A stretch of 64,000 nt of DNA. It comes from a virus (Duplodnaviria; Caudoviricetes). Positions 49,043 to 61,763 of the stretch are shown here, piece by piece. The DNA lies in the IMG/VR virus record IMGVR_UViG_3300048588_000476, positions 1,845 through 65,844 of that record; one strand, given 5' to 3'. How positions within the stretch are numbered: the stretch's first letter is position 1; every line of letters starts with the position of its first letter. Made by a program: the position numbers and the translations under genes. The notes beneath the pieces are model-generated. The model was not told the DNA's origin. It searched no databases and saw only the letters and a program-made list of their open reading frames with translations.

Positions 49043-49222
49043 GTCCGTTCCACGCCCGTGCTCGCCTCTATCTCGCCGCTGACGCGGCAGAGGCTGCGCG
49101 CGGAGGGTGGGGCGGACTGCGTCCTAGTAGTCGCTCGCCCCGCGCGTGGCGTTGTGATAGGATACGCACGGAGGCTCTGGTGTCGTAGACACCGAGGTAG
49201 AGCCGAGTACGTTCGTAGTATA

Positions 49223-49238
49223 GTTGATAGCTATCAAC
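49223..49238. promoter_or_regulatory. 16-bp palindrome GTTGATAGCTATCAAC
   Basis: exact copy abutting an SD. Confidence 0.8.
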
Positions 49239-49248
49239 GGAGGGAGCC

Positions 49249-49518
49249 ATGGCTGCACCACGCATAGAGGCAGAGAGCTGGGTACGTAGACTGGTGGAGA
49301 GGCACCTAGCCGCTACCAACGCCAAATTGACAGAAGCAAGGGTCAAATTGGTGCTACTACGCAAGGAAGGGGCGCGTACTGCTGCAACGGAGCGACGATG
49401 CCAACGTTTGATCGCGCTAGCGCATAGGGACAGAACATGGCTGGCAGCAGCTGGGCCACGCAAGCGGCCGAAAGCCCCGCCGGGCGAGCTGACAAAACTG
49501 CTGGACGAATTCCGTTAA
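49249..49518 (+). CDS. hypothetical basic protein
   Basis: GGAGGGAG SD directly after a palindrome copy; 89 aa. Confidence 0.55.
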   Translation: MAAPRIEAESWVRRLVERHLAATNAKLTEARVKLVLLRKEGARTAATERRCQRLIALAHRDRTWLAAAGPRKRPKAPPGELTKLLDEFR

Positions 49519-50213: not shown

Positions 50214-50233
50214 GCCGAATTACCTGACGTATT

Positions 50234-50249
50234 GTTGATAGGTATCAAC
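50234..50249. promoter_or_regulatory. 16-bp palindrome variant (AGGT centre)
   Basis: GTTGATAGGTATCAAC. Confidence 0.75.
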
Positions 50250-50350
50250 TACGCTACTGCCACGACACCCAGAATTTAACGGCCTTACTACCCACAATTC
50301 TCCACCACTTACACTATCCACAAACCTCGTTTATACAACGTCCGAATTAC

Positions 50351-50379
50351 TTGACATTTCCTATCTATTAGCGTATAAT
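50351..50379 (+). promoter_or_regulatory. consensus sigma70 promoter
   Basis: TTGACA-17 bp-TATAAT exact match. Confidence 0.9.
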
Positions 50380-50472
50380 GGTGGCGTTAGTGGGAAATTG
50401 TACGAAGTAAATTTTGGCAGTAAGGCAGTGCGAGGCGGGCCGGTGGTGCGTTGATAGACTTCTGTACTTTCA

Positions 50473-50488
50473 GTTGATAGCTATCAAC
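50473..50488. promoter_or_regulatory. 16-bp palindrome GTTGATAGCTATCAAC
   Basis: exact copy; half site GTTGATAG at 50450. Confidence 0.8.
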
Positions 50489-50937
50489 CAAAACCCCAGC
50501 CCAAATGCACGCCCTCCCACTACTGGGTCGCGGTGCGGTTCGCTAACCAGCCTGCGCGACTCAGGCTCAGCCTTCGGGCAGCTACAGGTGCATAACAAGC
50601 GGTGCAGTAATGTGGATGCAGACGGAATCAGTACTGTCGAACGATAGTACGAAACGCCCCGAGGCGGGGGCGGACAGGGAGCTGGTGGTGTGGGGCAATC
50701 AGTGTGTTGGTGCTGCTACAGGGCACACGTGCACTGACCCGAAGTACCATGCCTAGCGTGCCTGTTATGCGAACGTCGGTAAGATTCGGCTCACTACCGA
50801 GCGCTACCCACCACGCTGCACGGAGCGCATTGAAAGCTCGCCAGACACAAGTGCATGACCAATAAACGTGTCGGCGTTAACCCTTCAGTGCATATGCCAG
50901 CATCCCCCGTGCGTAAGGCACGTACAAAGGGCGGCGC

Positions 50938-50953
50938 GTTGATAGCTATCAAC
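50938..50953. promoter_or_regulatory. 16-bp palindrome GTTGATAGCTATCAAC
   Basis: exact copy. Confidence 0.8.
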
Positions 50954-51492
50954 GTTCAACCTACCCGGGTGGCGATCCAAATAAGACGAAGGCGAAAGAG
51001 ATCGAATGTAGTTGATTCAGCGTGCCGTGGTTCGTAAGCCCTCCCCGCGCAAGGCCGGGAATCGGTGGACACAAAGCGGCGTCGGTCAGTGTGACCGACA
51101 AGAACACCAAGACATACGCTGATACGCTGCACGTGCATGGTGTCGTGAGACACGCATGCATCGGTCTCGGACTGGGGCGGAGCAAGCAGCCCCTGCGTAC
51201 ACAACGTACGTGCTGGTCGACCCCAACCATGCTAGGGGTCACTAATGTAAACGCGCAGCGGCGGAGCTGCGTGTGTGTCGCCACCTATTCCCATACACTT
51301 CAGGCAACGCACTACTGGGGCAGCCCAGACGAGGCATATCCCTCGTGCAGCTCCGCCTATCGAGCGCGGGGCGCTCCCCCAACTCGATCCTAAGAAACAC
51401 CTTTCTTCGGCGCCTCTGACCGTTCCCCTAACCGTATGACCTTTCGCAGTACCGGTATGGAGGCGCCGAAGAAAGCTGTTTCTATTCTTCCC

Positions 51493-51508
51493 GTTGATAG
51501 CTATCAAC
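51493..51508. promoter_or_regulatory. 16-bp palindrome directly before first array gene
   Basis: exact copy, 8 bp before ATG 51517. Confidence 0.8.
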
Positions 51509-51516
51509 CAAACGCC

Positions 51517-51729
51517 ATGAAAATAATCCGAGCTGAACGCTGGGACGAACCGGAAGACGCCAAGTGCGTCGTGTGCGACATGCCTACAATAGGCTGGGCG
51601 CAGACAGACCAGATGTCCGGCGTCCGACGGGTCGTCCTGCCTTGCGGGTGCTGTAATCAACTTGACACCCCGCATGCGATACCCGACGACATGATCGCCG
51701 TGGCTCTGCTGATGTTGGAGGAGACATGA
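51517..51729 (+). CDS. zinc-finger array gene 1 (type A)
   Basis: CVVC..LPCGC..IAVALLMLEET. Confidence 0.8.
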   Translation: MKIIRAERWDEPEDAKCVVCDMPTIGWAQTDQMSGVRRVVLPCGCCNQLDTPHAIPDDMIAVALLMLEET

Positions 51730-51917
51730 ACAAAATAGCGGCAGCATGGCGCCCTGTGCACCCCCAAACGTGCGTCGAATGTGGAGCCCCCGTTGAGGGG
51801 TATGTGTTTATGGAGGGAAGACCGCACGGGGGCACGTTGCCGTGTGGGTGCAGTTTCTCCGGCAAGTTGACGCCCGAAGAGATAGCACTAGCCTTGCTCA
51901 TGCTGGAGGGTGAATGA
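51726..51917 (+). CDS. zinc-finger array gene 2 (type A)
   Basis: CVEC..LPCGC..LTPEEIALALLMLEGE. Confidence 0.85.
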   Translation: MNKIAAAWRPVHPQTCVECGAPVEGYVFMEGRPHGGTLPCGCSFSGKLTPEEIALALLMLEGE

Positions 51918-52135
51918 GACGCGCGGCATCACTCCGGTACATGCACGGGTACAACGGCCCCAACTGCTGCCCGGCATGCGACTCCCCCGTCACTGGGTTT
52001 GTGCTCGACGGCAGAGCACGGCACATATACGTCGTGCCATGCGGGCACCGCTCGACGAATCCAGAGTGGTGCTCGAAGGGACAGCGCCAGCTGACGCCAT
52101 TCGAGATAGCGTTGATGTTATTGGAGGCAGAATGA
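51914..52135 (+). CDS. zinc-finger array gene 3 (type A)
   Basis: CPAC..VPCGH..LTPFEIALMLLEAE. Confidence 0.85.
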   Translation: MRRAASLRYMHGYNGPNCCPACDSPVTGFVLDGRARHIYVVPCGHRSTNPEWCSKGQRQLTPFEIALMLLEAE

Positions 52136-52344
52136 AACCAAGACCGATCCTCAAGGTGGAGCAGAGCCCCGGCCCCACTAGCTTTTGTGGACTGTGCAAC
52201 CGTAATCGTGCATGGTACGCAGAAGCAGAGGACTGCGGGAATACGTACCGCTTCGACCTCCCGTGCGGGCACTCGTGGGGAGTACAGGTGCACCTCACGC
52301 CCGAAGAGCTGGCCCTAGCCTTGTTGATGATGGAGGGTGCATGA
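52132..52344 (+). CDS. zinc-finger array gene 4 (type A)
   Basis: CGLC..LPCGH..LTPEELALALLMMEGA. Confidence 0.85.
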   Translation: MKPRPILKVEQSPGPTSFCGLCNRNRAWYAEAEDCGNTYRFDLPCGHSWGVQVHLTPEELALALLMMEGA

Positions 52345-52547
52345 AACAAATCACAAGCGTGCATCGGTACTCAATGACCGGCGTGCATTGCGAGGTATGC
52401 CACGAGCCGAGTAACGGATGGGCGTGCGTCGACCAGATGCACTTTTTCGCCATGCCGTGCGGGCACCAGCGGACCACCAAGCACGTACTCACCCCGCGTC
52501 TGCATGCGATAGCCTTGCTCATGTACGAAGGGGCCGAACGTGACTAG
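52341..52547 (+). CDS. zinc-finger array gene 5 (type A)
   Basis: CEVC..MPCGH..LTPRLHAIALLMYEG. Confidence 0.85.
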   Translation: MKQITSVHRYSMTGVHCEVCHEPSNGWACVDQMHFFAMPCGHQRTTKHVLTPRLHAIALLMYEGAERD

Positions 52548-52749
52548 AAAATTCCATATGCGCCAAACGATGGCGTCCGTGCAAGGGCAGCCGGCTAAGT
52601 GCCCTCAATGCCGTCGTTTTGTCACGCACTTCCTGTGGACTAATGCAAGCACTACTGGGTTCGCGCTGCCATGTGGGCACCATCCGGAACCTATTCAGCT
52701 CAGCCCCGAGGACTTGGCCCTAGCCTTGTTGATGATGGAGACGGTGTAA
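52540..52749 (+). CDS. zinc-finger array gene 6 (type A)
   Basis: CPQC..LPCGH..LSPEDLALALLMMETV. Confidence 0.85.
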   Translation: MTRKFHMRQTMASVQGQPAKCPQCRRFVTHFLWTNASTTGFALPCGHHPEPIQLSPEDLALALLMMETV

Positions 52750-52982
52750 TGCCTACCCTAGACATAAACGCCGAACTAGACTTCTTCCCCGCTGACGAGC
52801 GCACAGGGCAAGCGTGCCCCCTGTGCAACGAGGTAGTGCGCGGATGGGCATCGGCAACGAGGTATGTCGGGCACCCGACGCTGTTCTGCCTCCCGTGCGG
52901 GTGCGCCCCGTTCCAGTTCACCGACTGGTCGATGACGCCTGCACTGCATGCACTGATGCTCCTACGAATGGAGGGCGTATGA
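52749..52982 (+). CDS. zinc-finger array gene 7 (type A)
   Basis: CPLC..LPCGC..MTPALHALMLLRMEGV. Confidence 0.85.
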   Translation: MPTLDINAELDFFPADERTGQACPLCNEVVRGWASATRYVGHPTLFCLPCGCAPFQFTDWSMTPALHALMLLRMEGV

Positions 52983-53188
52983 GACGAATCACGACGGTCG
53001 AACCTAACGGCGCAGGTTTGCAAATGTGCACCAAGTGCCGCGAGCGTACCCCGTACGTTGCGCGGGTGGATGCCCGACACCATAGCTACTACAACTTCGA
53101 CCTCCCATGCGGGCACTCGTGGAGCGACGCGCCGCCGCTGACGCCCGAAGAGCTGGCCCTAGCCTTGTTGATGATGGAGGGTGCATGA
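52979..53188 (+). CDS. zinc-finger array gene 8 (type A)
   Basis: CTKC..LPCGH..LTPEELALALLMMEGA. Confidence 0.85.
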   Translation: MRRITTVEPNGAGLQMCTKCRERTPYVARVDARHHSYYNFDLPCGHSWSDAPPLTPEELALALLMMEGA

Positions 53189-53400
53189 GAGTCCACAAGC
53201 GGACCAGCCTGGAGTGGTGCGACGACTGCAACGCCAGCACTACTTTCTGGGTTGACCTCGCGCCGCATCTGCCGGGCATTGAAGAGTGCTACTCGTTGCC
53301 ATGCGGGTGCTACCTCGGACGCCACGCGGGGCATCTGCCTCGACCCCCGCTCTCTACAGAGCAGGCAGCCCTTGCTCTTCTCTTGGCGGAGGACGCATGA
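53185..53400 (+). CDS. zinc-finger array gene 9 (type A)
   Basis: CDDC..LPCGC..LSTEQAALALLLAEDA. Confidence 0.85.
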   Translation: MRVHKRTSLEWCDDCNASTTFWVDLAPHLPGIEECYSLPCGCYLGRHAGHLPRPPLSTEQAALALLLAEDA

Positions 53401-53636
53401 GACGTATTCAGTCAGCCTACACGAATAAGGGGCTACCGTACCGGTGCTCCACGTGCGACGCCCTCGTCTTCGGACGCGCAGAGGTGCATGAGGAGTCCTT
53501 CCAGCTCGCCCAGCTCATGCTTCCGCACAACCTTCCATGCGGGTGCGTGTGGAACACATACAAACATATGTCGTCCGGGGCGTTGGGGACCGCCGAGCTG
53601 GCCGCGGCGATGTTGATAGCTATCAACGAGGACTAG
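53397..53636 (+). CDS. zinc-finger array gene 10 (type A)
   Basis: CSTC..LPCGC..LGTAELAAAMLIAINED. Confidence 0.85.
   Translation: MRRIQSAYTNKGLPYRCSTCDALVFGRAEVHEESFQLAQLMLPHNLPCGCVWNTYKHMSSGALGTAELAAAMLIAINED
53612..53627. promoter_or_regulatory. 16-bp palindrome at 3' end of array gene 10
   Basis: exact copy; encodes LIAIN. Confidence 0.8.
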
Positions 53637-53640
53637 GGCC

Positions 53641-53853
53641 ATGCACAGACGCGTAGATTTGTTCGTGCCGTTGGATGGCGCAGGTACGAAATGTCCTCAC
53701 TGCTTCAGTAGGCCAGAAGGGTATGTATGGTTGGAAGTCAACAACCTGTCATACCCAATGCTGGTGCCGTGCGGGCATGCGGCAGAGGGCCAGCACCTCG
53801 AACATCTTACGGACGCCGAGATTGTGTTTGCTGCCTTGCTGCGAGACAAATGA
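53641..53853 (+). CDS. zinc-finger array gene 11 (type A)
   Basis: CPHC..VPCGH..LTDAEIVFAALLRDK. Confidence 0.85.
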   Translation: MHRRVDLFVPLDGAGTKCPHCFSRPEGYVWLEVNNLSYPMLVPCGHAAEGQHLEHLTDAEIVFAALLRDK

Positions 53854-54083
53854 TGCCAGTGCGAACAGATATCCCCGGGGCAATTGTGTATATGTACGAG
53901 CCCGCAGCGCCCCCAGCACCCCCGATATGCCGCACGTGCTGCACTCGCACGTCGGGGTGGGTATATGTGGACCCAGATTATTACCATCTGCCATGCGGGC
54001 ACGGGGCGCCGCCTCGATCCGGGGAAAAATCCCTCGACCCGGCGGTGCACGCACTGGCACTGTTGATAGTGGAGGACGCATGA
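53850..54083 (+). CDS. zinc-finger array gene 12 (type A)
   Basis: CRTC..LPCGH..LDPAVHALALLIVEDA. Confidence 0.85.
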   Translation: MMPVRTDIPGAIVYMYEPAAPPAPPICRTCCTRTSGWVYVDPDYYHLPCGHGAPPRSGEKSLDPAVHALALLIVEDA

Positions 54084-54289
54084 GAGTGTATCGACGTGCG
54101 AGTGCAGCACGGTGCCATAAATGTGGGCAGCCGTCGGACTACTGGGTCGACGTAGCAGCGTACATAGACCCGGATTCAACCCGCATGTGGGACGGGTACT
54201 ACGACCTGCCGTGTGGGTGTGCGTGGGATGGCGGCGCCCCTCTGCCTGCCGACCAGATTGCTATTGCCCTGCTGATGGGAGACCCATGA
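54080..54289 (+). CDS. zinc-finger array gene 13 (type A)
   Basis: CHKC..LPCGC..LPADQIAIALLMGDP. Confidence 0.85.
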   Translation: MRVYRRASAARCHKCGQPSDYWVDVAAYIDPDSTRMWDGYYDLPCGCAWDGGAPLPADQIAIALLMGDP

Positions 54290-54513
54290 GAAAAATCGTG
54301 CGGCCCCCAGAGCCTCACTGGAAAACGCAAAACGCATGCTCCATGTGCTATGAGTCCGTGGAGCACGTGGTGTGGGTCGCTGAACCCGGCACCATGTTTG
54401 GCAACATCTATGCGCTTCCGTGCGGGCACCTGATAGAATATTTGGGCAAAATGCCCAACGACTTGACGACAGACGAGATAGCGCTGGCAATGCTGATGCT
54501 GGAGGTGTCGTGA
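54286..54513 (+). CDS. zinc-finger array gene 14 (type A)
   Basis: CSMC..LPCGH..LTTDEIALAMLMLEVS. Confidence 0.85.
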   Translation: MRKIVRPPEPHWKTQNACSMCYESVEHVVWVAEPGTMFGNIYALPCGHLIEYLGKMPNDLTTDEIALAMLMLEVS

Positions 54514-54713
54514 ACATTCGAAAGATCAAAGGGTTTCAGTGCCCGAAGTGCAACACTCCCGTAACGCACCGGGTGCGAGTTGGCGGCAACGCCGTACCCC
54601 ATACCGAGTCGGACCCGCATGCGTACTCGCTGCCCTGTGGGCATGCATGGGCAAGAGCTGGGGCGCCGCTAGACCCCGCCGAACTTACTCTTGCGCTCCT
54701 ACTGATCGATTGA
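54510..54713 (+). CDS. zinc-finger array gene 15 (type A)
   Basis: CPKC..LPCGH..LDPAELTLALLLID. Confidence 0.85.
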   Translation: MNIRKIKGFQCPKCNTPVTHRVRVGGNAVPHTESDPHAYSLPCGHAWARAGAPLDPAELTLALLLID

Positions 54714-54724
54714 TATGTATCAAC
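54709..54724. promoter_or_regulatory. palindrome variant between array genes 15 and 16
   Basis: ATTGATATGTATCAAC. Confidence 0.65.
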
Positions 54725-54731
54725 GTTCATA

Positions 54732-54974
54732 ATGTCGAATATACACAGAGCAGAGCAAATACCGGCCATCCTTTTTCCTCCCGTTTGTACGACCTGCGGC
54801 ACCCCCACGAAAGTAATGGCTAGGGTGTACAAACACCACACACAGGGCGCTTACGTCAACAAGGAATCGCAGTTCGTCCACTTCCTGCCTTGCGGGCACT
54901 GCCCCGGCGTTGGATGCCAAGACCTGCCCGAGGAAGAAGTGACGATAGTGCTGCTGATGCTGGAGGAAGCATGA
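54732..54974 (+). CDS. zinc-finger array gene 16 (type A)
   Basis: CTTC..LPCGH..LPEEEVTIVLLMLEEA. Confidence 0.85.
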   Translation: MSNIHRAEQIPAILFPPVCTTCGTPTKVMARVYKHHTQGAYVNKESQFVHFLPCGHCPGVGCQDLPEEEVTIVLLMLEEA

Positions 54975-55210
54975 AAATCGAGAGTGTTGAACGCAAAGAG
55001 TACGACTACCACTGCTTCAAGTGCAAGGTACTCGTGACACACTACATATTCACGGATCGACAGGTAGCCAAGCCTTCGGGGCCGGGGTTCTATGATCGTG
55101 ACACCTTGGCATATTACTACCCCTGCGGGCACTCGAACTACTCCGCAGACCATGGGGCAAGTATTGACGAGGGGTTGCTGACTGCGGCAGCACTGATGGT
55201 GGAGGACTGA
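54971..55210 (+). CDS. zinc-finger array gene 17 (type A)
   Basis: CFKC..YPCGH..IDEGLLTAAALMVED. Confidence 0.85.
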   Translation: MKIESVERKEYDYHCFKCKVLVTHYIFTDRQVAKPSGPGFYDRDTLAYYYPCGHSNYSADHGASIDEGLLTAAALMVED

Positions 55211-55431
55211 TGCGAAACATCAAACTGCGACGCGACGCCGGGCGACTATCGTGCTATAACTGCAAACAATCTCGCCCCCATAAGTACATTGACGTCGAGC
55301 GCATCAAGTGCACGGTGTGCGCCTCGTGCGGGCAGGTCACCACAAGAAACACAGTCATGGGGCCGCTAGGTAAAGTGCCTGACCTCTCCGAGGCCGAGTT
55401 AGCCCTGCTTCTATTGATGGAGGAGTCGTGA
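55210..55431 (+). CDS. zinc-finger array gene 18 (type B)
   Basis: CYNC..CASC..LSEAELALLLLMEES. Confidence 0.85.
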   Translation: MRNIKLRRDAGRLSCYNCKQSRPHKYIDVERIKCTVCASCGQVTTRNTVMGPLGKVPDLSEAELALLLLMEES

Positions 55432-55673
55432 TGCAGTTGCCGACGGCGTGGCGCAAGCTAGAGGGTACCGGCACCATATGCCCGAGCTGTCAGCGGCATA
55501 CTAATGGCCTATTCAACGGCAATCAAAAGTACATATGCGACCTCCCAGTCGGGTCGTTATACGTGTGCCCAACGTGCAAGTACATGGAGTCTTTGGGGCT
55601 CCTTGACACCGAATCCAGACTGCTCAGCGAGAGCGAGCTGGCGTATGTCATCCTGATAGCGGAGGGCACATGA
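55428..55673 (+). CDS. zinc-finger array gene 19 (type B)
   Basis: CPSC..CPTC..LSESELAYVILIAEGT. Confidence 0.85.
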   Translation: MMQLPTAWRKLEGTGTICPSCQRHTNGLFNGNQKYICDLPVGSLYVCPTCKYMESLGLLDTESRLLSESELAYVILIAEGT

Positions 55674-55882
55674 ACGTCGTGCGGGTGATCAGCTGGAACG
55701 AACACTGCGAGCTGTGCAACGCTCACGCCCCGTGTTACGCAGAAGTGGACCTCCCCGGGTACATTACGTACAACATACCGTGCGGGTGTGCGTACGGAAC
55801 GTATGACGACGGAACGCCTGCGTCCCCACTGACCCCCGAGCAAATAACACTGGCCTTGCTTATGTGGGAGGGTACAGAATGA
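55670..55882 (+). CDS. zinc-finger array gene 20 (type A)
   Basis: CELC..IPCGC..LTPEQITLALLMWEGTE. Confidence 0.85.
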   Translation: MNVVRVISWNEHCELCNAHAPCYAEVDLPGYITYNIPCGCAYGTYDDGTPASPLTPEQITLALLMWEGTE

Positions 55883-56088
55883 ACTACGACTTTTTCTTCT
55901 CGCCTGACGTCTGCAAGGTGTGCGGCAACAGCGGGCCTGCGTACGTGGTGTGTCGCGGGCCGGAAGTGTATGGGGTGTTCAACCTGCCCTGTGGGCACAG
56001 GTTCGCGACTACTGTGTCGAATGATCCGGTGAAGCAATGCCCCGACGAGATTCTTGCGCTGTATCTTCTGCTGGAGAAGCCGCAATGA
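55879..56088 (+). CDS. zinc-finger array gene 21 (type A)
   Basis: CKVC..LPCGH..CPDEILALYLLLEKPQ. Confidence 0.85.
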   Translation: MNYDFFFSPDVCKVCGNSGPAYVVCRGPEVYGVFNLPCGHRFATTVSNDPVKQCPDEILALYLLLEKPQ

Positions 56089-56336
56089 TGTTCAACAAGC
56101 TCGAATACAACTTCATAACAAGCTGGCAGCGTCCATGCGAAATATGCGCCAAGCAATGCACACAATATATGGTCTTCGCCGGGAGTCGCGAAGATTTCGG
56201 GCAGGCTATCACCGTGCTGTATAACGTTCCGTGCGGATGTAACGCGACCCCCGAGTTGCCTGCCGAGAACCTACGCGCCCCCGTGCCAGAGTCGCTACCC
56301 CCCGACGTCATGGCGCTGTGCATGCTGGAAGGTTGA
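56085..56336 (+). CDS. zinc-finger array gene 22 (type A)
   Basis: CEIC..VPCGC..LPPDVMALCMLEG. Confidence 0.85.
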   Translation: MMFNKLEYNFITSWQRPCEICAKQCTQYMVFAGSREDFGQAITVLYNVPCGCNATPELPAENLRAPVPESLPPDVMALCMLEG

Positions 56337-56347
56337 TAGGTATCAAC
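56332..56347. promoter_or_regulatory. palindrome variant between array genes 22 and 23
   Basis: GTTGATAGGTATCAAC. Confidence 0.75.
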
Positions 56348-56348
56348 C

Positions 56349-56573
56349 ATGGGATACATTGCGACCAAGCATGTGCTGTATTGCCGACAGTGTGAAAATC
56401 ACACGATGCACGGACAGATGAACGCCCCTGCCACAGGCCCTCGGCAGGCATCGGTGTTCTGTGCGCAGTTCTGTCTCGTATGTGACCGCTTCGGGGCGTA
56501 CGGGCACGACTTCGGAAAGAAACGCCCGCCAGAGTTCTATAAGGCGCTGTGGCAACTGATGCAGGAGACTTGA
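56349..56573 (+). CDS. zinc-finger array gene 23 (type C)
   Basis: CRQC..FCLVC..PPEFYKALWQLMQET. Confidence 0.8.
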   Translation: MGYIATKHVLYCRQCENHTMHGQMNAPATGPRQASVFCAQFCLVCDRFGAYGHDFGKKRPPEFYKALWQLMQET

Positions 56574-56575
56574 CA

Positions 56576-56782
56576 ATGTACAAACGAGTTCCCGGGTATT
56601 GGATGCAGTGCCCTACGTGCGACGCCAAGACCCTCCACAACCGGCTGGACCACCCAAACTCGTGGCGGTTTTTTACGTTCTGCAGCAGGTGCCACTTTGT
56701 GCATCGAGAGGACGCACAAACCCGGCAATTTATGGGCGACCCAGCGCAGCACATTGCTCTGTGGTACATGCTAGGAGACTGA
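56576..56782 (+). CDS. zinc-finger array gene 24 (type C)
   Basis: CPTC..FCSRC..GDPAQHIALWYMLGD. Confidence 0.8.
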   Translation: MYKRVPGYWMQCPTCDAKTLHNRLDHPNSWRFFTFCSRCHFVHREDAQTRQFMGDPAQHIALWYMLGD

Positions 56783-56784
56783 CC

Positions 56785-56985
56785 GTGTACACCCTCTCGT
56801 ATCAAGTGCATCACTGCCTGAAGTGCGACTTGTTCTACCGCATGCCGATACTCCACGCTAGCCCGAACAGCTGGATGCGATTCTGCCCTACGTGCGACAG
56901 GGTGTGGATGTCAGTCTGGGCAAACCCCGCGTTTCCGGAACCGGTGGAGCACTATCGCGCATTGTGCGTGCTGATGGAGGGCTAA
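56785..56985 (+). CDS. zinc-finger array gene 25 (type C)
   Basis: CLKC..FCPTC..FPEPVEHYRALCVLMEG. Confidence 0.8.
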   Translation: MYTLSYQVHHCLKCDLFYRMPILHASPNSWMRFCPTCDRVWMSVWANPAFPEPVEHYRALCVLMEG

Positions 56986-56989
56986 CCGC

Positions 56990-57169
56990 ATGAAAGTGTT
57001 CAGCTATAACATCCCGCATCACGTGTGCGCGGTATGCGCAACTCCCTCCCCTGCGTACGCTATACATGAGCGCGGGGTGTACGAGCTGCCGTGCGGGCAT
57101 GACGAGGTAACCAGCGAGTCGTTGTCCCCTGAGTTGCTGGCGATGTGCGTACTGCTGATGGAGGAATGA
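56990..57169 (+). CDS. zinc-finger array gene 26 (type A, 59 aa, absent from ORF track)
   Basis: MKVFSYNIPHHVCAVC..LPCGH..LSPELLAMCVLLMEE. Confidence 0.85.
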   Translation: MKVFSYNIPHHVCAVCATPSPAYAIHERGVYELPCGHDEVTSESLSPELLAMCVLLMEE

Positions 57170-57378
57170 TGTACGAGATCGGGCTGACGTACTACCTATC
57201 ATGCGGGAATTGTTCGCCCTACTTCGACAGCTTCCTTCACCACTCCCTCATGCACGAGTCGGGGCACCAATTTGTATTTTGCGCGAAGTGCGGCGACGCA
57301 GGGCTGACCTACAGCCGCACAGCCTTTCCGGGCAATCCCGCCCAATACCGTGCCCTCTGGGCGTTGTTGTCGGAGTAG
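57166..57378 (+). CDS. zinc-finger array gene 27 (type C)
   Basis: CGNC..FCAKC..FPGNPAQYRALWALLSE. Confidence 0.8.
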   Translation: MMYEIGLTYYLSCGNCSPYFDSFLHHSLMHESGHQFVFCAKCGDAGLTYSRTAFPGNPAQYRALWALLSE

Positions 57379-57380
57379 CT

Positions 57381-57602
57381 ATGTACCGCGCTGGCACCAA
57401 CTACTATACAACCTGCCCCGTTTGCCTCAAGCACTCAACGTCGTTCACTGGGCGGCATAACGTACTGATACACAACGTTACAGACCACATATTCATGTTC
57501 TGCGCAACGTGCGGATACGTACACCGGACGAACGTCCACCATGTTAGTTTTCCGGGCGACCCCGCCCAATACCGTGCCCTCTGGGCACTTCTTCAGGAGT
57601 AA
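57381..57602 (+). CDS. zinc-finger array gene 28 (type C)
   Basis: CPVC..FCATC..FPGDPAQYRALWALLQE. Confidence 0.8.
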   Translation: MYRAGTNYYTTCPVCLKHSTSFTGRHNVLIHNVTDHIFMFCATCGYVHRTNVHHVSFPGDPAQYRALWALLQE

Positions 57603-57606
57603 CATC

Positions 57607-58485
57607 ATGACTGTCTCTGTTGCCGATCGTTTGCTTGCCACCAAGCTGTTCGTTTCGAAGTGGTCCGGCGAGGCGTCCGTTCCCAAGGTCGCCCGCGAGG
57701 CCGAGGACTCCAACAATGCCCGCCGCGGCACCGTGCGCGCCTCTGCCAAGGTGTTTGAGTCCGACGAGCTGAAGGCGGTGCTGACCGAAATGGCCCAGCT
57801 GTATGCGTGGTGGCGTGGCCGTACGGCGCCGTGGCGTGACGGTGGCTGGCGCGTGCTGATGGCGGACCAGTCCATGCAGTTCATGGAGGAGGCTGGCGAC
57901 CGCATCGCTGTCATCGAGCAGAAGCTGCTCCCCGCCCTGTACGACACCTACCCTGCCCATCTGGAGGTGTGCAAGCTGCAGATGGGGGCGCTGTTCACAC
58001 AGGTGCGCTACCCCGAGCCCAACGAGCTGGCCCGCCGGTTCGCCATCAAGCTCTCCTACGAGGCGGTCCCGTCGGCCACAATGCTGGAGCGGTTCGGAAC
58101 GTTGTTCACCGCGGAGCAGTTGGAGGAGGCCAAGCAGCAGGAAGCCGCCATGCTCACCGCTGCTGTGGACGACGTGTGGATGAAGCTCGCCGACCCGGTC
58201 ACGCACCTGATCGAAGTCCTTCGCAAGGCGGACGACGGACAGCACAAGCGTTGGCACGACAGCCTAATCACCAACATCGTCGACGCCGCCCGTGCTGCCA
58301 GTGCACTCAACTTCACCGGCAGTGCGGAGTTGGCGCAGATTGCCGAGGACATGCTGGTCGAGCTGGGACCGGTGCAGAAAGAGCACCTCAAGAACAACCC
58401 CGCCACCCGTGCCGATGTCCGCGCCAAGGCAGAGGCGTTGCGCGAGCGCATGTCCGGGTTCCTGCCAATGACTCAGGAGGAATGA
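57607..58485 (+). CDS. DUF3150-like helical protein
   Basis: AGGAG SD; WSG, TAPW..GGWRVL, YP...MGALF...YP...EL..RF pattern. Confidence 0.6.
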   Translation: MTVSVADRLLATKLFVSKWSGEASVPKVAREAEDSNNARRGTVRASAKVFESDELKAVLTEMAQLYAWWRGRTAPWRDGGWRVLMADQSMQFMEEAGDRIAVIEQKLLPALYDTYPAHLEVCKLQMGALFTQVRYPEPNELARRFAIKLSYEAVPSATMLERFGTLFTAEQLEEAKQQEAAMLTAAVDDVWMKLADPVTHLIEVLRKADDGQHKRWHDSLITNIVDAARAASALNFTGSAELAQIAEDMLVELGPVQKEHLKNNPATRADVRAKAEALRERMSGFLPMTQEE

Positions 58486-58486
58486 T

Positions 58487-58723
58487 GTGATCATCGGGCT
58501 TCTGTCGTTCTTACATCCGGCCGAGCGCAAGCACTGGAAGTTTCGGCCGGGGATGGGGTGTGACTGCGGCGATCCTGTCGGGGTGTGGCAGTTTTACGGC
58601 GACAGCCCGTGCTTCGAACTGTGCACGCACTGTTGTCGGTTCTTTGACATGGACGGCGTGCCGATGGATGTACTGCCGGAGGAAGTAGCGTTGTTCTTGC
58701 TGACTATGGAGGGCTCACAGTGA
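58487..58723 (+). CDS. zinc-finger array gene 29 (type B)
   Basis: CDC..CTHC..LPEEVALFLLTMEG. Confidence 0.75.
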   Translation: MIIGLLSFLHPAERKHWKFRPGMGCDCGDPVGVWQFYGDSPCFELCTHCCRFFDMDGVPMDVLPEEVALFLLTMEGSQ

Positions 58724-58962
58724 GATCGATAGCGATTCCGAAGGACGCAAAGTGGCGATACACAAAGGGCGATTCGTGTGTAGCGTGCCTTGGTCCGCAG
58801 ATATGGGGCCACGGTACGGTATGGCGTACGTTTCAGAACACCCGCAAGGCGTTTGCGTGGAACGCAGAGTTGTGCCCCGCATGTGCGTGTCTTCGGGTAG
58901 GGCGCAGCTATACCACATTGCCAGCGGCAGAAGTAGCATTGATCCTTTTGAAGGCGCAATGA
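58720..58962 (+). CDS. zinc-finger array gene 30 (type B)
   Basis: CVAC..CPAC..LPAAEVALILLKAQ. Confidence 0.8.
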   Translation: MRSIAIPKDAKWRYTKGDSCVACLGPQIWGHGTVWRTFQNTRKAFAWNAELCPACACLRVGRSYTTLPAAEVALILLKAQ

Positions 58963-58963
58963 C

Positions 58964-59233
58964 ATGGCCGGACGATTCCCGCGGGTGCAAATCCCCGACG
59001 ACGTGCAGTGGACAACCGCACCAGACCCGTGGAGCACCTGCCGTAAATGCGGCGCTCCTTGCATTCGAGGGGACGGTACGGCGTATGTTCGGCAAACAAC
59101 CGTCGCCCGGCAAGTAACGGCGTATGTATGGTATGGTTCTGTATGCCCGAAATGTAGGACAATCACAGCAGGAGGTATAACCAACTATCTGTCACACAAG
59201 CAGCTAGCATTCATCCTTCTCGCAGCAGACTAG
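58964..59233 (+). CDS. zinc-finger array gene 31 (type B)
   Basis: CRKC..CPKC..LSHKQLAFILLAAD. Confidence 0.8.
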   Translation: MAGRFPRVQIPDDVQWTTAPDPWSTCRKCGAPCIRGDGTAYVRQTTVARQVTAYVWYGSVCPKCRTITAGGITNYLSHKQLAFILLAAD

Positions 59234-59278
59234 CAGTACACAACCACAACGCAGTACCACTCAGGAGAAGTAACCATC

Positions 59279-60340
59279 ATGGCTAAGCTCGACAACGTTC
59301 TTTCCGAAATCTCCACCACCAAGCTGTCCGAGTCCACCATCTTCCCGATCCTCGACGAGGCGTGGACGTGCCACCTCCAACCCCAAGCGCCGGTTCCGTG
59401 CTTCGTCGGCGCCCCGGGCGTGGGCAAGACGCAGCTGGTGTACGCTTGGGCCGCTGCTCGCGGCTTCGAGGTGGTGGAGCTGAACGGCAGCACCATGTCC
59501 CCCACCGACTTCGTGGCGTACGTGCCGGACGACAAGACGCACACGCTGGCGGAGTACGTGCATAGCGCCATCGCCCGGTGCTGCGATCCCAGCTTCAAGG
59601 GCGTGCTGTTCATCGACGAGCTGCACCAGACTCACCCCGAGGTGCAGAAGCCGTTCAGCAAGACGATCAACCAGCGCATGGTGGGCAGCATGAAGCTCTC
59701 CGACGACTGCATGATCGTCACCGCAGGCAACCGAGTGACGGACAAGGCCGGTGCCAATCGGCTGCTGTCCATGATCGCCAACCGCGTCGATACGATCCCG
59801 GTCGAAGTCAACAACGAGGCACTGGTGGAATACTTCATCTCCGCTGGGCACCCGGAGATGTGCGCCGGTTTCCTGATGGCGTTCCCGTACGACGAGAAGA
59901 AGGACTTCAAGCCGGAGGAGCCCGCGTTCTTCACCCCCCGGTCGTTCGAGCGCGTCGCGGTCAAGATGAAGTACGGCCGTGCCCCCACCGAAGCGTCCGT
60001 GGCCTCGTCCATCGGCCCCGGCCGTGCGCTGGAGTTCCTCTCGTTCCTGCAGATGACCTCCACCCTGCCGACGCTCAAGGACGTCATGAGCGCGCCGACG
60101 ACGTGCGCCCTGCCCACCAAGATGGACGAGCAGTGCGCCATGGTGTGCATGTTGTCCATGAACCTGACGCTGGAGACGGCAAAGAAGATCGTGCCGTACG
60201 CGAAGCGCTTCCGCTTGCCGATGCAGGTGCTGTTCCTCAAGCTGGTGGTGCGGCGGGACAACAAGCTGCAGGACTCCAGGGACCTGATGGACTGGCTGCG
60301 TCAGCCGGAAGTGTGCCAAGCCATCACGGGTCGGAAGTAA
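59279..60340 (+). CDS. MoxR-like AAA+ ATPase
   Basis: Walker A GAPGVGKT, Walker B VLFIDE, TAGNR, IANR arginine finger, TPRSFE sensor II. Confidence 0.9.
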   Translation: MAKLDNVLSEISTTKLSESTIFPILDEAWTCHLQPQAPVPCFVGAPGVGKTQLVYAWAAARGFEVVELNGSTMSPTDFVAYVPDDKTHTLAEYVHSAIARCCDPSFKGVLFIDELHQTHPEVQKPFSKTINQRMVGSMKLSDDCMIVTAGNRVTDKAGANRLLSMIANRVDTIPVEVNNEALVEYFISAGHPEMCAGFLMAFPYDEKKDFKPEEPAFFTPRSFERVAVKMKYGRAPTEASVASSIGPGRALEFLSFLQMTSTLPTLKDVMSAPTTCALPTKMDEQCAMVCMLSMNLTLETAKKIVPYAKRFRLPMQVLFLKLVVRRDNKLQDSRDLMDWLRQPEVCQAITGRK

Positions 60341-60348
60341 CAACTACT

Positions 60349-60376
60349 GGGAGCGTTGATAGCTATCAACGCTCCC
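60349..60376. promoter_or_regulatory. palindrome extended to 28 bp after the AAA+ gene
   Basis: GGGAGC-GTTGATAGCTATCAAC-GCTCCC. Confidence 0.8.
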
Positions 60377-60390
60377 CACCGGAGACAACC

Positions 60391-60489
60391 ATGTATTTGT
60401 TTATCAGAATCCTGCAGACAGTGCTGTTAGCGCTAGTCTGTGCGCTCGCGTTCAAATTTGGATACTTTCTTGTGGAGCAACTGCCGTGA
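60391..60489 (+). CDS. small membrane peptide (32 aa)
   Basis: GGAG SD; MYLFIRILQTVLLALVCALAFKFGYFLVEQLP; GTGA overlap with next gene. Confidence 0.5.
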   Translation: MYLFIRILQTVLLALVCALAFKFGYFLVEQLP

Positions 60490-61763
60490 CCAACGAAGTG
60501 CAGACAGTATCGCCTGAATTGCAGAAGTCGCTCGACGACGTCATGGTCCGTATGGGCGTCAAGTGGCCGTTCTTCTGCCAGATGATGGCAGCACAAGTGC
60601 TGGAGTTGAACAACTCCATGCCCACCATGGCGACCGACGGACACAAGGTCTACATCAACGAGAAGTTTTTCATGGAGGTTCTGAGCGACGCCACGCGTGT
60701 CGGCGTCATGGCGCACGAGATCGTGCATGTGTGTCTGGAGCACCCGTCTCGGGTCGGTTTGCGCAACAAGCTGATCTGGAACATCGCCATCGACTTCGTT
60801 ACCAACGGACTGCTGGTGGCGGAGAAGTTCGAGCTGCCCACCCCGTACCGCACCTTCGACACCATCATGTCCCCGGGGTGCGGGGCACTGGTCGATTCCC
60901 GCTTTGACGACATGTCGGAAGAGCAGGTGTACGACTACCTGATGAAGAACCTGCCGTCCGAGGCGACCAAGGAGCCGGAAGCGGGCGAGAAAGGTGTAGG
61001 GGAGGGCGCTGAGCCCGGCGGACTGCAGGGCGACGGCCCCGGCAAGCGGCAGCGCGGTAACGGGCGCCCGCGCCCCGACATGGACGACATGATGACCCCG
61101 CAGGGCACCCCCGAGCAGCAGGCCGAGCAGCGGCGCAAGACGCACACCGCCATCATCAACGCTGCCACCATGGAGCGGGCCATGGGTCAAGGTGCAGGGC
61201 TGGGCCAGCGGCTGGCCGGGCGCCTTACCCAACCCAAAGAGCGGTGGTACGACCGGCTCCGTCGGTACGTGACCGATCTGACGTTCCACAACTACAACTG
61301 GAACAAGATCAACCGCCGGGTATTGCGCACGGTCGGCATCATCGCCCCGGATATGCGCGACGAGGTGATCCGGCATCTGGTCATTGCGGTGGACTTGTCC
61401 GGCAGTATCACGGACGAGATCGTCGACTACTTCGCCAGCCATATGAACAAGATTCTCGACGATTGCAAGCCCTCCAAGATGTCTGTCATGTACTTCGATG
61501 ACGGTGTGGACCGCACCGACGAGTACACGGTGCAGGACTTGCCTATCAAGTTCGTGGCACGGGGCGGCGGGGGAACCAACTTCATCCCGGTGTTCGAGGA
61601 AGTCGCCAAGATGGAGCAGCCGCCGTCGGCGCTGATTTTCCTGACGGACACGTACGGGGCGTTCCCCCGGCAGGCGCCCGACTATCCGGTAATCTGGGCG
61701 AGCTTTATCGACACCGTTGAGGTGCCGTTCGGCGAGCTGGTAATCATCGACGACAGGCATTGA
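60486..61763 (+). CDS. HExxH metallopeptidase plus vWA domain protein (DUF2201-like)
   Basis: TMATDG, AHEIVH, WNIAID..N; MIDAS DLSGS, GGGGTNF, IFLTD. Confidence 0.88.
   Translation: MTNEVQTVSPELQKSLDDVMVRMGVKWPFFCQMMAAQVLELNNSMPTMATDGHKVYINEKFFMEVLSDATRVGVMAHEIVHVCLEHPSRVGLRNKLIWNIAIDFVTNGLLVAEKFELPTPYRTFDTIMSPGCGALVDSRFDDMSEEQVYDYLMKNLPSEATKEPEAGEKGVGEGAEPGGLQGDGPGKRQRGNGRPRPDMDDMMTPQGTPEQQAEQRRKTHTAIINAATMERAMGQGAGLGQRLAGRLTQPKERWYDRLRRYVTDLTFHNYNWNKINRRVLRTVGIIAPDMRDEVIRHLVIAVDLSGSITDEIVDYFASHMNKILDDCKPSKMSVMYFDDGVDRTDEYTVQDLPIKFVARGGGGTNFIPVFEEVAKMEQPPSALIFLTDTYGAFPRQAPDYPVIWASFIDTVEVPFGELVIIDDRH

Follow-up and report, generated by a model that had tools for sequence, protein, structure and literature searches.

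Thirty-one small genes on the + strand at 51517-59233 of the 64,000-nucleotide stretch analysed here (the window) are, judged by profile and pairwise comparison, real and diverged paralogs, and a lineage-specific multigene family is the best explanation of the array. We give about an even chance (roughly 0.5) to the whole reading, in which the array is a repertoire of zinc-stapled, host-directed binders that turns over fast. All 31 ORFs reported by an earlier sequence-only reading were found, encoding 59 to 89 aa with the starts as chosen; 28 are contiguous and are followed by a 292-aa DUF3150-like gene and then by the last three. The copy number is exceptional. The summed gene length of 6,870 nt equals ~10.7% of the window, in line with the earlier estimate of about a tenth, and 10.4% of the complete 65,844-bp phage genome.

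Members of the array and their relationship

All 31 proteins carry two pairs of zinc ligands and a helix at the C terminus, with the counts given before: the first pair reads CxxC in 30 proteins, gene 29 alone having CxC, and the second is PCG[H/C] in 21 and CxxC in 10. The tail has the form PAQYRALWxLL in genes 23-25, 27 and 28 and LxxEE(L/I)ALALLMxE in the other genes. The pI ranged from 4.2 to 9.6, and the proteins are therefore of no single charge type. In the list, A and B are subfamilies, and E values are from leave-one-out searches unless called pairwise.

51517..51729, +, gene 1: 70 aa, CxxC...PCGC, A, E 6.8e-11; start uncertain (no SD; other in-frame ATGs at 51436 and 51457)
51726..51917, +, gene 2: 63 aa, A, E 3.4e-15; ATGA overlap, GGAGG within the upstream tail
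51914..52135, +, gene 3: 73 aa, A, E 4.9e-11
52132..52344, +, gene 4: 70 aa, A, E 2.6e-14
52341..52547, +, gene 5: 68 aa, A, E 1.1e-11
52540..52749, +, gene 6: 69 aa from GTG 52540, A, E 4.7e-14; no SD; alternative starts ATG 52558 or 52570
52749..52982, +, gene 7: 77 aa, A, E 2.6e-10
52979..53188, +, gene 8: 69 aa, A, E 2.4e-17; AlphaFold-modelled
53185..53400, +, gene 9: 71 aa, A, E 3.9e-09
53397..53636, +, gene 10: 79 aa, A, E 1.1e-08; ends block 1; palindrome within tail codons
53641..53853, +, gene 11: 70 aa, A, E 1.5e-07; opens block 2
53850..54083, +, gene 12: 77 aa, A, E 2.7e-09; no SD 4-mer; alternative start ATG 53853
54080..54289, +, gene 13: 69 aa, A, E 1.8e-12
54286..54513, +, gene 14: 75 aa, A, E 1.3e-11
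54510..54713, +, gene 15: 67 aa, A, E 1.2e-14; ends block 2; stop codon within palindrome
54732..54974, +, gene 16: 80 aa, A, E 9.4e-10; opens block 3; no SD
54971..55210, +, gene 17: 79 aa, A, E 1.6e-06
55210..55431, +, gene 18: 73 aa, CxxC...CxxC with A-type tail, E 2.9e-08
55428..55673, +, gene 19: 81 aa, CxxC...CxxC, E 2e-05
55670..55882, +, gene 20: 70 aa, A, E 4.3e-13
55879..56088, +, gene 21: 69 aa, A, E 1.4e-09
56085..56336, +, gene 22: 83 aa, A, E 3.5e-06; ends block 3; stop codon within palindrome
56349..56573, +, gene 23: 74 aa, B, weakest member, missed; best pairwise E 0.004; opens block 4; no SD
56576..56782, +, gene 24: 68 aa, B, E 2.4e-05; pairwise 3.1e-15 with gene 28
56785..56985, +, gene 25: 66 aa, B, missed; best pairwise E 2e-4
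56990..57169, +, gene 26: 59 aa, A, E 2.6e-09
57166..57378, +, gene 27: 70 aa, B, missed; pairwise 9e-20 with gene 28
57381..57602, +, gene 28: 73 aa, B; second AlphaFold-modelled member
58487..58723, +, gene 29: 78 aa, CxC...CxxC with A-type tail, missed; best pairwise E 1.2e-4
58720..58962, +, gene 30: 80 aa, CxxC...CxxC, missed; pairwise 3.6e-9 with gene 31
58964..59233, +, gene 31: 89 aa, CxxC...CxxC, E 0.032

The closest array pair shared 48% identity by blastp, and 106 of the 465 pairs matched at E<1e-3. Leave-one-out profile searches covered every stop-to-stop ORF in the window with 40 aa or more, 898 in all. They recovered 25 of the 31 held-out members at E<=2.4e-5 and a further one at E=0.032, and the 867 ORFs outside the family gave no match at E<=10 in any run. 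Genes 23, 25, 27, 29 and 30 were missed and were linked by pairwise matches, as between genes 27 and 28 or genes 30 and 31. Profile-profile comparison joined subfamily A to B (probability 86%, E 4.9e-6) and to the remaining group (96%, E 1.8e-9), and the shared profile proposed earlier is thus borne out. In-frame codon usage of the array matched that of the phage's other genes (correlation 0.71 with nine of them, falling to 0.14 and 0.09 out of frame), and GC3 was the highest position in 26 of the 31 genes.

Predicted fold and conserved scaffold

AlphaFold modelled gene 8 from a 99-sequence alignment with pLDDT 90.8 and pTM 0.78, placing strands at 4-9, 26-31 and 37-42 and a helix at 56-68. 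Gene 28, modelled from a separate 8-sequence alignment (pLDDT 82.3), gave the same elements in the same order. The common fold anticipated for the array is supported by this agreement, and subfamilies A and B are predicted to share a three-stranded zinc ribbon plus helix. No family in Pfam or PHROG was significantly similar to the proteins, nor was any solved or viral structure to the fold, and none was found in the literature, consistent with the view that no such family has been described.

In alignment A3, C17, C20, P43 and C44 were invariant in 99/99 sequences, G45 was conserved in 99%, L54 in 92%, A60 in 90% and L64 in 95%, and position 46 was H in 69%. Mean entropy was as low as 0.24 bits over the second knuckle and 1.8 over the helix; the rest of the alignment stood at 3.3-3.8. 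This pattern agrees with a constant scaffold bearing variable surfaces; the surface would be free to vary, since nothing beyond the four ligands and a few core positions is fixed. The variable columns also go some way toward the claim that the sequence between the anchors is nearly unalignable, but the strands do align, and the wording was somewhat overstated.

The tail had been read as a docking element, with F-box and SOCS-box adaptors as the comparison. The best-conserved tail residues, L54, A60 and L64, lie on one helical face, with A60 and L64 spaced i/i+4, and the monomer model places the helix with high confidence (pLDDT block means 96 and 88). The simplest reading therefore puts the helix in the hydrophobic core, with its conserved face probably packing on the sheet; the SD of the next gene adds a further constraint on the last three codons of the tail. 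A docking role is neither needed nor supported by these features, and no relation to either adaptor class, and no hub or partner, was found. All members may still act as adaptors that use the helix to engage one shared phage or host hub: positions 59-65 are hydrophobic at all seven, so one face may be exposed, with room for a common partner. Of the earlier receptor or adaptor repertoire, the shared fold and profile with variable surfaces are supported; the docking tail and the adaptor likeness are not.

Junctions, blocks and neighbouring genes

Among the 30 junctions, including that from the DUF3150-like gene to gene 29, 21 overlapped (18 by 4 nt as ATGA/GTGA, two by 1 nt and one by 8 nt) and nine had gaps of 1-18 nt; most genes are thus joined by overlaps, as first noticed. 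An SD 4-mer lay within 18 nt upstream of the chosen start in 25 of the 31 genes, in all 25 inside the upstream ORF. It was absent for genes 1, 6, 12, 16, 23 and 31, whose starts are for that reason less sure; genes 1, 16 and 23 are first in their blocks. A palindrome occurred at 11 sites in the window, compared with 0.01 expected, including the following four:

51494..51507, +, palindrome TTGATAGCTATCAA, 9 nt upstream of the gene 1 start
53613..53626, +, palindrome TTGATAGCTATCAA, within the gene 10 tail, 14 nt upstream of the gene 11 start
54710..54723, +, palindrome TTGATATGTATCAA, 8 nt upstream of the gene 16 start
56333..56346, +, palindrome TTGATAGGTATCAA, 2 nt upstream of the gene 23 start

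A 52-nt repeat family was present in nine copies at the 3' ends of genes, and the 3' ends of genes 4 and 8 form a 99-nt repeat, 86% identical. The surrounding features were as follows:

50351..50379, +, sigma-70 consensus TTGACA-17-TATAAT, 12/12 matches: candidate promoter ~1.1 kb upstream of the array
57607..58485, +, interrupting DUF3150-like gene, 292 aa; the 314-aa ORF beginning at 57541 is over-extended and runs into gene 28
59279..60340, +, AAA+ ATPase directly 3' of the array; phrog_1297 1e-54, PF00004 1.3e-11
60486..61763, +, DUF2201_N putative metallopeptidase plus vWA-like domain; PF13203 1.4e-29, PF09967 7.6e-24

The DUF3150-like label is tentative and comes only from language-model and predicted-structure neighbours: the exact 292-aa form is in the Atlas, where its neighbours scored 0.97 with TM 0.83-0.86, and PF11348 occurs in 12-17% of the members of those neighbours. 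The protein itself had no PHROG match and no Pfam match even at E<=10.

We propose that translation is coupled along four blocks of the array, namely genes 1-10, 11-15, 16-22 and 23-31. Inside each block, the closing codons L-M-x-E-G (..ATG.. GAG GGx) of one gene would contain GGAGG as the ribosome-binding site for its successor, whose start would be overlapped by the stop (ATGA). Early synthesis from a rightward operon is suggested by position, as the array lies downstream of the perfect sigma-70 consensus; promoter-like sites overall were no more numerous in the region than expected by chance.

Distribution, turnover and proposed role

Outside this genome, 86 small representatives were found among 1.84 billion, all metagenomic, and 73 of 103 non-self small proteins had <60% identity to any window member; gene 5 matched five metagenome-source proteins at 83-88% identity. 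Homologues of the AAA+ ATPase occurred in 785 phage records, and tblastn with one array member against the collection holding them gave no match at E<=1. A search of four related phage records with the family profile gave no match at E<=0.01, and in Rollin it gave one 12.5-bit match. By these searches, the family was not found in cultured phages.

The relatives, compared indirectly, were contigs with ~85-95% identity that came from four runs of a single study. Contigs of runs X1 and X2 had no gene 20 (joint 55675->55903), and gene 27 was precisely absent in X1 (joint 57168->57381, with 6 letters shared at the joint). In one X1 contig the 2/3 junction held ~190 extra letters and the 13/14 junction ~658. 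Divergence was 7-15% in array pieces and 4.5-5.6% in pieces that lay wholly or mostly on the DUF3150-like gene. Substitutions were counted in one X1 contig, from 40 listed differences of 1,216. In gene 1, 9 codons changed synonymously and 11 non-synonymously; the helix-covering codons 54-65 held four of these changes, all synonymous. Codons 1-37 of gene 2 had 1 synonymous and 11 non-synonymous changes. Combined, these 40 differences gave totals of 22 non-synonymous against 10 synonymous changes of codon, a pN/pS of ~0.6, below 1.

The gain and loss of genes and the substitution pattern indicate an accessory, fast-changing character that suits the host-directed proteins proposed earlier. Fast turnover is also compatible with dispensable or selfish cassettes. 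In the repertoire that we propose, each protein would be a ~70-aa single domain, a three-stranded ribbon with one zinc site whose C-terminal helix closes a small hydrophobic core. The conserved tail-SD-start junction of ~35-50 nt would double as recombination homology, and relatives may gain or lose whole genes at boundaries because of it. The family probably acts on host proteins, with each paralog perhaps binding and then blocking or redirecting a different one; defence effectors, toxins and takeover targets are candidates. If the paralogs do bind distinct host proteins, the array would be a fast-turnover inhibitor repertoire. Precedents are described for T4, in which a toxin-inhibitor gene was amplified in tandem (PMC9391042), and for T4-type phages, whose non-essential genes are reported to be shuffled when small conserved regulatory cassettes recombine with one another (PMC2839356).

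Array proteins and their predicted fold

The array encodes a real, new and rapidly changing family of predicted zinc-ribbon-plus-helix proteins. Its 31 plus-strand open reading frames (ORFs) were found at 51517–59233, with the same stops as in the sequence-only reading and lengths of 59–89 aa when the start is placed at or near the preceding stop; genes 1–28 are contiguous, and genes 29–31 follow a DUF3150-like gene. All 31 carried a first Cys pair (CxxC, but CxC in gene 29), a second ligand pair (PCG[H/C] in 21 and CxxC in 10) and a hydrophobic helix motif at the C-terminal end. Coding was supported by base composition (GC of 0.58/0.46/0.70 at codon positions 1/2/3) and by codon usage, which correlated with that of nine other phage genes at 0.71 in frame versus 0.14 and 0.09 out of frame. 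Six antisense ORFs of 131–196 aa matched no Pfam family at E ≤ 0.01 and were taken for chance frames of GC-rich DNA, and Rfam gave no match in 47000–64000. TRF detected no DNA-level tandem repeat of the gene period, and the copies are therefore old.

By blastp, 106 of 465 pairs matched at E < 1e-3, the closest pair being 48% identical. When each member was held out in turn and the profile was run over the window's complete set of 898 stop-to-stop ORFs, 25 held-out members of 31 were recovered at E ≤ 2.4e-5, one at 0.032, and five were missed; no non-member ORF matched at E ≤ 10. The five missed members come from two side groups that are tied to the main group by pairwise matches. In profile-profile comparison, subfamily A (PCG[H/C] knuckle) matched subfamily B (genes 23, 24, 25, 27 and 28) with 86% probability (E 4.9e-6) and the remaining group with 96% (E 1.8e-9), the latter alignment covering mainly the first knuckle and the tail.

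AlphaFold predicted a common fold, a zinc ribbon followed by a helix, for one member of each subfamily from separate alignments. Gene 8, modelled from 99 sequences (21 window members and 78 external), gave a pLDDT of 90.8 and a pTM of 0.78, with strands at 4–9, 26–31 and 37–42 and a helix at 56–68. Gene 28, modelled from an 8-sequence alignment of subfamily B, gave a pLDDT of 82.3, strands at 8–11, 23–31 and 36–41, and the same order of elements. All 31 members have four Cys/His ligand positions in two knuckles, and both models have a predicted three-stranded antiparallel sheet between these, as in a zinc ribbon; we infer that the proteins bind zinc. Across the 99 sequences, C17, C20, P43 and C44 were invariant; G45 (99%), L54 (92%), A60 (90%) and L64 (95%) were nearly so, the fourth ligand at position 46 was His in 69%, and Y/F40 and L42 were moderately conserved. 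The N-terminal strand, the inter-knuckle region and the pre-helix loop varied freely, with a mean entropy of 3.3–3.8 bits.

The C-terminal helix had been proposed as a docking tail, and the family had been compared with F-box or SOCS-box adaptors. In such an adaptor repertoire, all members would dock on one hub, for example the AAA+ ATPase with the vWA-metallopeptidase encoded downstream or a host protease, and the ribbon would recruit host targets for remodelling or degradation. Helix positions 59–65 are all hydrophobic, which exceeds the need of one buried face and would suit such docking. A60 and L64, however, lie one helical turn apart and thus form one face with L54; the helix is confidently modelled in the monomer (pLDDT block means of 96 and 88), and this face would pack on the sheet, so that the tail would belong to the core of the fold instead of being a loose peptide for docking. 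The helix is constrained as protein: in gene 1 of a relative's contig, codons 54, 63, 64 and 65 had changed, each of them synonymously. The tail also differs in subfamily B (PAQYRALWxLL, versus LxxEE(L/I)ALALLMxE in subfamily A). The array does resemble F-box and SOCS-box families in being a large set of paralogs in which a variable binding surface adjoins a short conserved stretch, but a Pfam search at E ≤ 0.01 assigned none of the 31 members to a box family, and the conserved segment looks like the core of the fold.

Known families gave no significant match. None of the 31 members matched any of 38,880 PHROGs (v4) at E ≤ 0.01, and Pfam gave only four single matches below threshold. A RING or U-box finger, hinted at by an LPCGH motif, was not found: there are four conserved ligand positions and not the eight of a two-zinc cross-brace, and zf-C3HC4_3 reached 13.7 bits in one member against a cut-off of 27. 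Foldseek against the PDB returned nothing at E ≤ 0.001 (top match ZifS, 8yoz_B, E 1.4), and neither did BFVD at that threshold. The best VIA-align scores, Z 4.7 (SpoVG) for the subfamily A model and Z 3.8 (AcrF10) for the subfamily B model, were within the tool's stated noise. A link to anti-CRISPR proteins was considered and dropped, the scores of AcrIF13 (Z 3.6 and 2.7) and AcrF10 (Z 3.8) lying within that same noise. An Atlas feature search with gene 8 reached 0.90 to unnamed clusters and was uninformative; homodimer prediction scored 0.01 and 0.02 against a mark of 0.42 and yields no answer on binding.

Weak matches to zinc ribbons did appear. Sequence profiles of the PDB gave ribbon matches at E 0.012–0.06, the best being eL42 (0.012) and RPB9 (0.016), with RPB9 and RPC10 ribbons together spanning 0.016–0.059; TFIIS (Z 2.8, 42 residues, rmsd 2.3) and Elf1 (Z 2.9) were weak structural matches, and a relative outside the window is annotated as 'transcription elongation factor Elf1' by one source. 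Genes 24 and 28 matched the Lar restriction-alleviation family below threshold (PF14354 at E 0.087, where gene 24 had 13.5 bits against a cut-off of 28.6; phrog_6795 at E 0.06–0.087); at E ≤ 0.01 none of the 31 members matched it. The array proteins might on this basis be nucleic-acid- or RNA-polymerase-directed regulators, TFIIS/RPB9/Elf1- or Lar-type ribbons that tune expression or relieve restriction. None of these matches is significant, however, and cross-matches among zinc ribbons come easily. The members share no basic surface (pI 4.2–9.6, with 20 of 31 members acidic), and 31 diverged copies suit many targets better than one conserved machine. We regard a regulatory role of this kind as distinctly improbable.

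Distribution and genome setting

A profile search of 1.84 billion representatives yielded 100 matches at E ≤ 1e-3. Ninety-five were proteins of 49–91 aa with the same layout, nine of them the window's own, leaving 86 external relatives from ENA, Logan and JGI metagenome assemblies that are named 'hypothetical protein' or, once, 'Elf1'. The other five were long Cys-rich proteins (275–2,908 aa) matched through the ribbon part only, in 3–21 stretches; judged by the starts of their sequences, they were taken for generic Cys-rich repeat proteins and not for fusions. A homologue search with the 99-sequence alignment returned, among the 16 matches listed, no Pfam domains and only proteins that were unnamed or called 'hypothetical protein'. 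Thirty of 103 non-self small proteins were at least 60% identical to a window member (66–99%) and 73 were below 60%, from which the combined repertoire of the clade is well above 31. The contigs that carry relatives of the array include ones of 64,884 and 18,708 bases.

Blastn of 57541–62000 against phage records gave no match, and neither did tblastn of gene 8 against the phage collection at E ≤ 1. Queries with the DUF3150-like protein, the ATPase and alignment A2 returned nothing from IMG/VR viral contigs, and no family member was found in JGI metagenome contigs or GTDB genomes, records near the window being possibly excluded from all three of these scans.

The virus record is complete (65,844 bp, with direct terminal repeats). 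Genes for a family-A DNA polymerase, an SNF2 helicase and a DUF927 primase-helicase are on the plus strand, whereas those for the terminase, the portal protein, the head and tail and a virion protein of 2,368 aa are on the minus strand. By portal protein, the nearest cultured phage is Pseudomonas phage Rollin (OR577172.1, 42% identity), followed by Roseobacter, Rhizobium and Pelagibacter podoviruses (26–29% identity). Rollin lacks the array, with one profile match of 12.5 bits, and a profile search found the family in none of four other phages (phiM6, CRP-3, MQM1 and RHph_N3_19). A stretch of about 9.5 kb in Rollin (51,800–61,282) has no annotated feature and many plausible minus-strand ORFs of 60–225 aa; none of Rollin's unannotated ORFs was related to the array.

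Features of the genome setting
18151–25260, minus strand: 2,368-aa protein; similar to giant phage proteins without known function (phrog_11358, 3.6e-50) and to a DarB-like antirestriction family (3.7e-28)
50351–50379: perfect TTGACA-17-TATAAT, about 1.1 kb upstream of the array, which opens the rightward gene set
57607 (most likely start): interrupting DUF3150-like gene, 292 aa; begins 5 nt past the gene 28 stop, with its ribosome-binding site in the gene 28 tail
Downstream of the array: AAA+ ATPase, then DUF2201 metallopeptidase/vWA protein

The array opens the rightward gene set downstream of the 50351–50379 consensus, a position from which early expression would follow; promoter- and terminator-like sites in 48000–62000 were not above chance. 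Between the consensus and gene 1 (50380–51516) there was no convincing ORF, the listed frames being without families and mutually overlapping. This ORF-poor stretch agrees with the long leader noted in the sequence-only reading.

The 292-aa form of the interrupting protein is present letter for letter in the ESM Atlas, while the 314-aa form from 57541 over-extends 22 codons into gene 28 (57541–57606). Its nearest viral Atlas clusters (feature score 0.97, TM 0.83–0.86) carry DUF3150 (PF11348) in 12–17% of their members, and Pfam returned no family for it even at E ≤ 10, so the PF11348 model itself was not matched. The Atlas neighbours provide a lead that the protein is distantly related to DUF3150.

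Genes 29–31 separate the DUF3150-like gene from the ATPase within one coupled operon, which would fit a shared ATPase-metallopeptidase hub. Homologues of the ATPase occur, however, in 785 phage records, including N4-like coliphages at 29–30% identity, whereas gene 8 had no match in the phage collection and the family profile found no member in four related phages and gave one weak match in a fifth. The ATPase module is therefore able to work without the array family; it is common and independent of the mini-proteins. Taken with the predicted core role of the helix, this makes the adaptor repertoire unlikely.

The pooled array GC at third codon positions (0.70) was clearly below that of the three larger genes of the same operon in 57607–61763 (0.84, 0.91 and 0.85), which could reflect faster change or a different origin.

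The strand arrangement bears on another explanation, in which the array proteins are packaged in the virion and injected, with the conserved helix as packaging signal. The internal proteins of T-even phages carry a short conserved capsid-targeting sequence, and packaged array proteins would parallel them: here too a short conserved segment is attached to otherwise polymorphic small proteins, and a shared DNA segment could drive exchange of the cassettes. Yet the array shares the rightward operon with genes of replication type, on the other strand from the head and tail genes and at a distance from them, and such a signal would sit at the C-terminus, within the folded core. Packaging is very improbable. 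The 2,368-aa protein is probably an ejected giant protein; it matched phrog_2206, the N4 virion RNA polymerase family, only at residues 91–307, and no polymerase domain was seen in it.

Gene junctions and turnover between relatives

Signals for translational coupling lie inside the coding tails of the array genes, and whole genes have been gained or lost at the junctions. A ribosome-binding site (SD) 4-mer was present within 18 nt before the start in 25 of 31 genes, always within the upstream ORF and typically as GGAGG, which encodes -E-G- codons of the upstream tail. Genes overlapped at 21 of 30 junctions, 18 of them by ATGA or GTGA. The last three tail codons are accordingly constrained by the SD of the next gene as well, which counts against conservation of the tail as a mark of docking. 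Two repeat families, one of 52 nt with 9 copies and one of 35 nt with 7, were found where genes end, and a 99-nt repeat (86% identity) is common to the 3' ends of genes 4 and 8; these repeats fit recombination or conversion at junctions. The junction combines the end of the core helix, a ribosome-binding site, a stop/start overlap and recombination homology, and several constraints act on one stretch of DNA.

A 14-nt palindrome, TTGAT-N4-ATCAA, occurred 11 times in the window against 0.01 expected by chance.

Copies of TTGAT-N4-ATCAA (plus-strand coordinates)
4547, 10444, 49224, 50235, 50474, 50939, 51494, 53613, 54710, 56333, 60356

All 11 copies were in the plus-strand gene arms. Several precede a start codon by 2–25 nt, and a 12-bp stem contains the one at 60356. 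Four stand exactly at the four non-overlapping borders, before genes 1, 11, 16 and 23; the copy before gene 11 lies in the gene 10 tail codons, and those before genes 16 and 23 span the stops of genes 15 and 22. Genes 1, 16 and 23 have no SD. These borders and the SD-less genes therefore divide the array into blocks 1–10, 11–15, 16–22 and 23–31. The palindrome may be an operator, an RNA hairpin or a processing site. We take the motif to match the FNR-box consensus. For an FNR box centred 41.5 nt before the transcription start, the start would fall inside genes 1 and 23, and the FNR reading was set aside. Hairpin promoters of the N4 type were also rejected, given the confined match of the 2,368-aa protein to phrog_2206.

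Turnover was compared in contigs of four metagenome runs from one study (X1–X4), which covered the array at roughly 85–95% identity. A 4,937-base contig of X1 joined 55675 to 55903, with gene 20 gone and 21 other letters in its place, and the same joint was present in X2. The same X1 contig also joined 57168 to 57381, so that gene 27 was gone exactly, with 6 letters common at the joint. In a 5,206-base contig of X1, about 190 unaligned letters at genes 2/3 and about 658 at genes 13/14 were found where the flanking window coordinates abut, and we read these as one and about three extra genes. As in PeSL-type cassettes, short conserved DNA units stand at the borders of variable genes, and whole genes are inserted or deleted there between relatives. 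Pieces of the array differed from the window by 7–15%, and pieces in or mostly over the DUF3150-like gene by 4.5–5.6%. In a small sample of 40 listed X1 differences, beside 1,176 further ones, the codon changes of gene 1 were synonymous in 9 cases and non-synonymous in 11, and those in codons 1–37 of gene 2 were synonymous in 1 and non-synonymous in 11.

Such turnover could also be expected of selfish or near-neutral cassettes, copies that accumulate and diverge at a conserved junction prone to duplication or exchange and are of little benefit to the phage. The presence/absence differences among close relatives, the many non-synonymous changes, the low third-position GC (0.70 vs 0.84–0.91 in neighbouring genes) and the rarity of the family, whose 16 listed clusters hold 1–4 member sequences each, are all in keeping with this. 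Against this, every one of the 31 copies is complete and keeps its two ligand pairs, none of the 99 family sequences departs from C17, C20, P43 or C44, and the listed helix-codon changes in gene 1 are all silent. A capsid-limited 66-kb genome moreover retains about 6.9 kb of array genes. We consider near-neutral accumulation quite unlikely.

Proposed function and known systems compared

What is new is the family itself, together with its combination of folds, the design of its junctions and its scale; in the literature covered, which lay outside subscription journals and supplements, neither the array family nor a comparable zinc-ribbon array was described. To our knowledge, the function of most small early phage genes is not known. 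Many known counter-defence proteins are small binders. The accessory behaviour of the family, its fixed scaffold with free surfaces, its mixed charge (pI 4.2–9.6) and the precedents of amplified or arrayed small inhibitors together suggest a repertoire of binders against host proteins. In its specific form, to which we give a probability of roughly one in four, the array would be a germline-encoded phage binder library, in which each of dozens of zinc-stapled mini-domains would act against its own variant of a polymorphic defence effector or toxin, and the tail-SD-start junction would also be a recombination cassette by which the repertoire is reshuffled among co-infecting relatives. In a bolder variant, the shared helix would also plug all members into one hub.

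The array offers one compact, confidently modelled scaffold in 31 copies within a single genome, with whole-gene differences between close relatives. Should the members act on host proteins, they would serve as a natural set for learning what changes of the surface redirect a mini-binder to another target, and they would show how a phage limited by its capsid can afford to give them a tenth of its genome.

The fold resembles that of classical ribbons (TFIIS domain III, the C-terminal ribbons of RPB9 and RPC10, and Elf1) and of Lar, in that two knuckles likewise bracket a three-stranded antiparallel sheet of about 45 residues. The matches to them are weak only (E 0.016–0.09, Z 2.8–2.9), and the array proteins differ in their PCG[H/C] second knuckle, present in 21 of 31 with ligands one residue apart, and in the added C-terminal helix.

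Arbiol et al. (2010, PMC2839356) describe the PeSL cassettes of T4-type phages, small conserved units between non-essential genes that serve as recombination sites. As described there, PeSLs are promoter-plus-terminator units between unrelated genes, and PeSL and hyperplastic regions share with the array the insertion, deletion and replacement of whole genes between close relatives. Unlike those PeSLs, the array unit is a coding tail with an SD and an overlapping stop/start, and it lies between paralogs. The 14-nt border palindrome, with a putative role only, is the nearer analogue of a stem-loop cassette.

Tandem small genes are also seen in the amplification of the T4 inhibitor gene tifA against ToxN, which arises by recombination under host-defence pressure (Srikant et al. 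2022, PMC9391042). The tifA copies are recent, identical and dosage-raising, whereas the array copies are old, at most 48% identical and without a defence link.

The immunity-protein arrays of the SUKH type in polymorphic toxin systems, also recruited by DNA viruses, likewise contain many diverged adjacent copies of a small binding scaffold, interpreted as a set directed at toxins that vary (Zhang et al. 2011, PMC3113570). The SUKH proteins of that account have another fold with no zinc site, and they occur in cellular genomes or large eukaryotic viruses. If the array is indeed a binder library, it would be the viral counterpart of such bacterial immunity-gene arrays.
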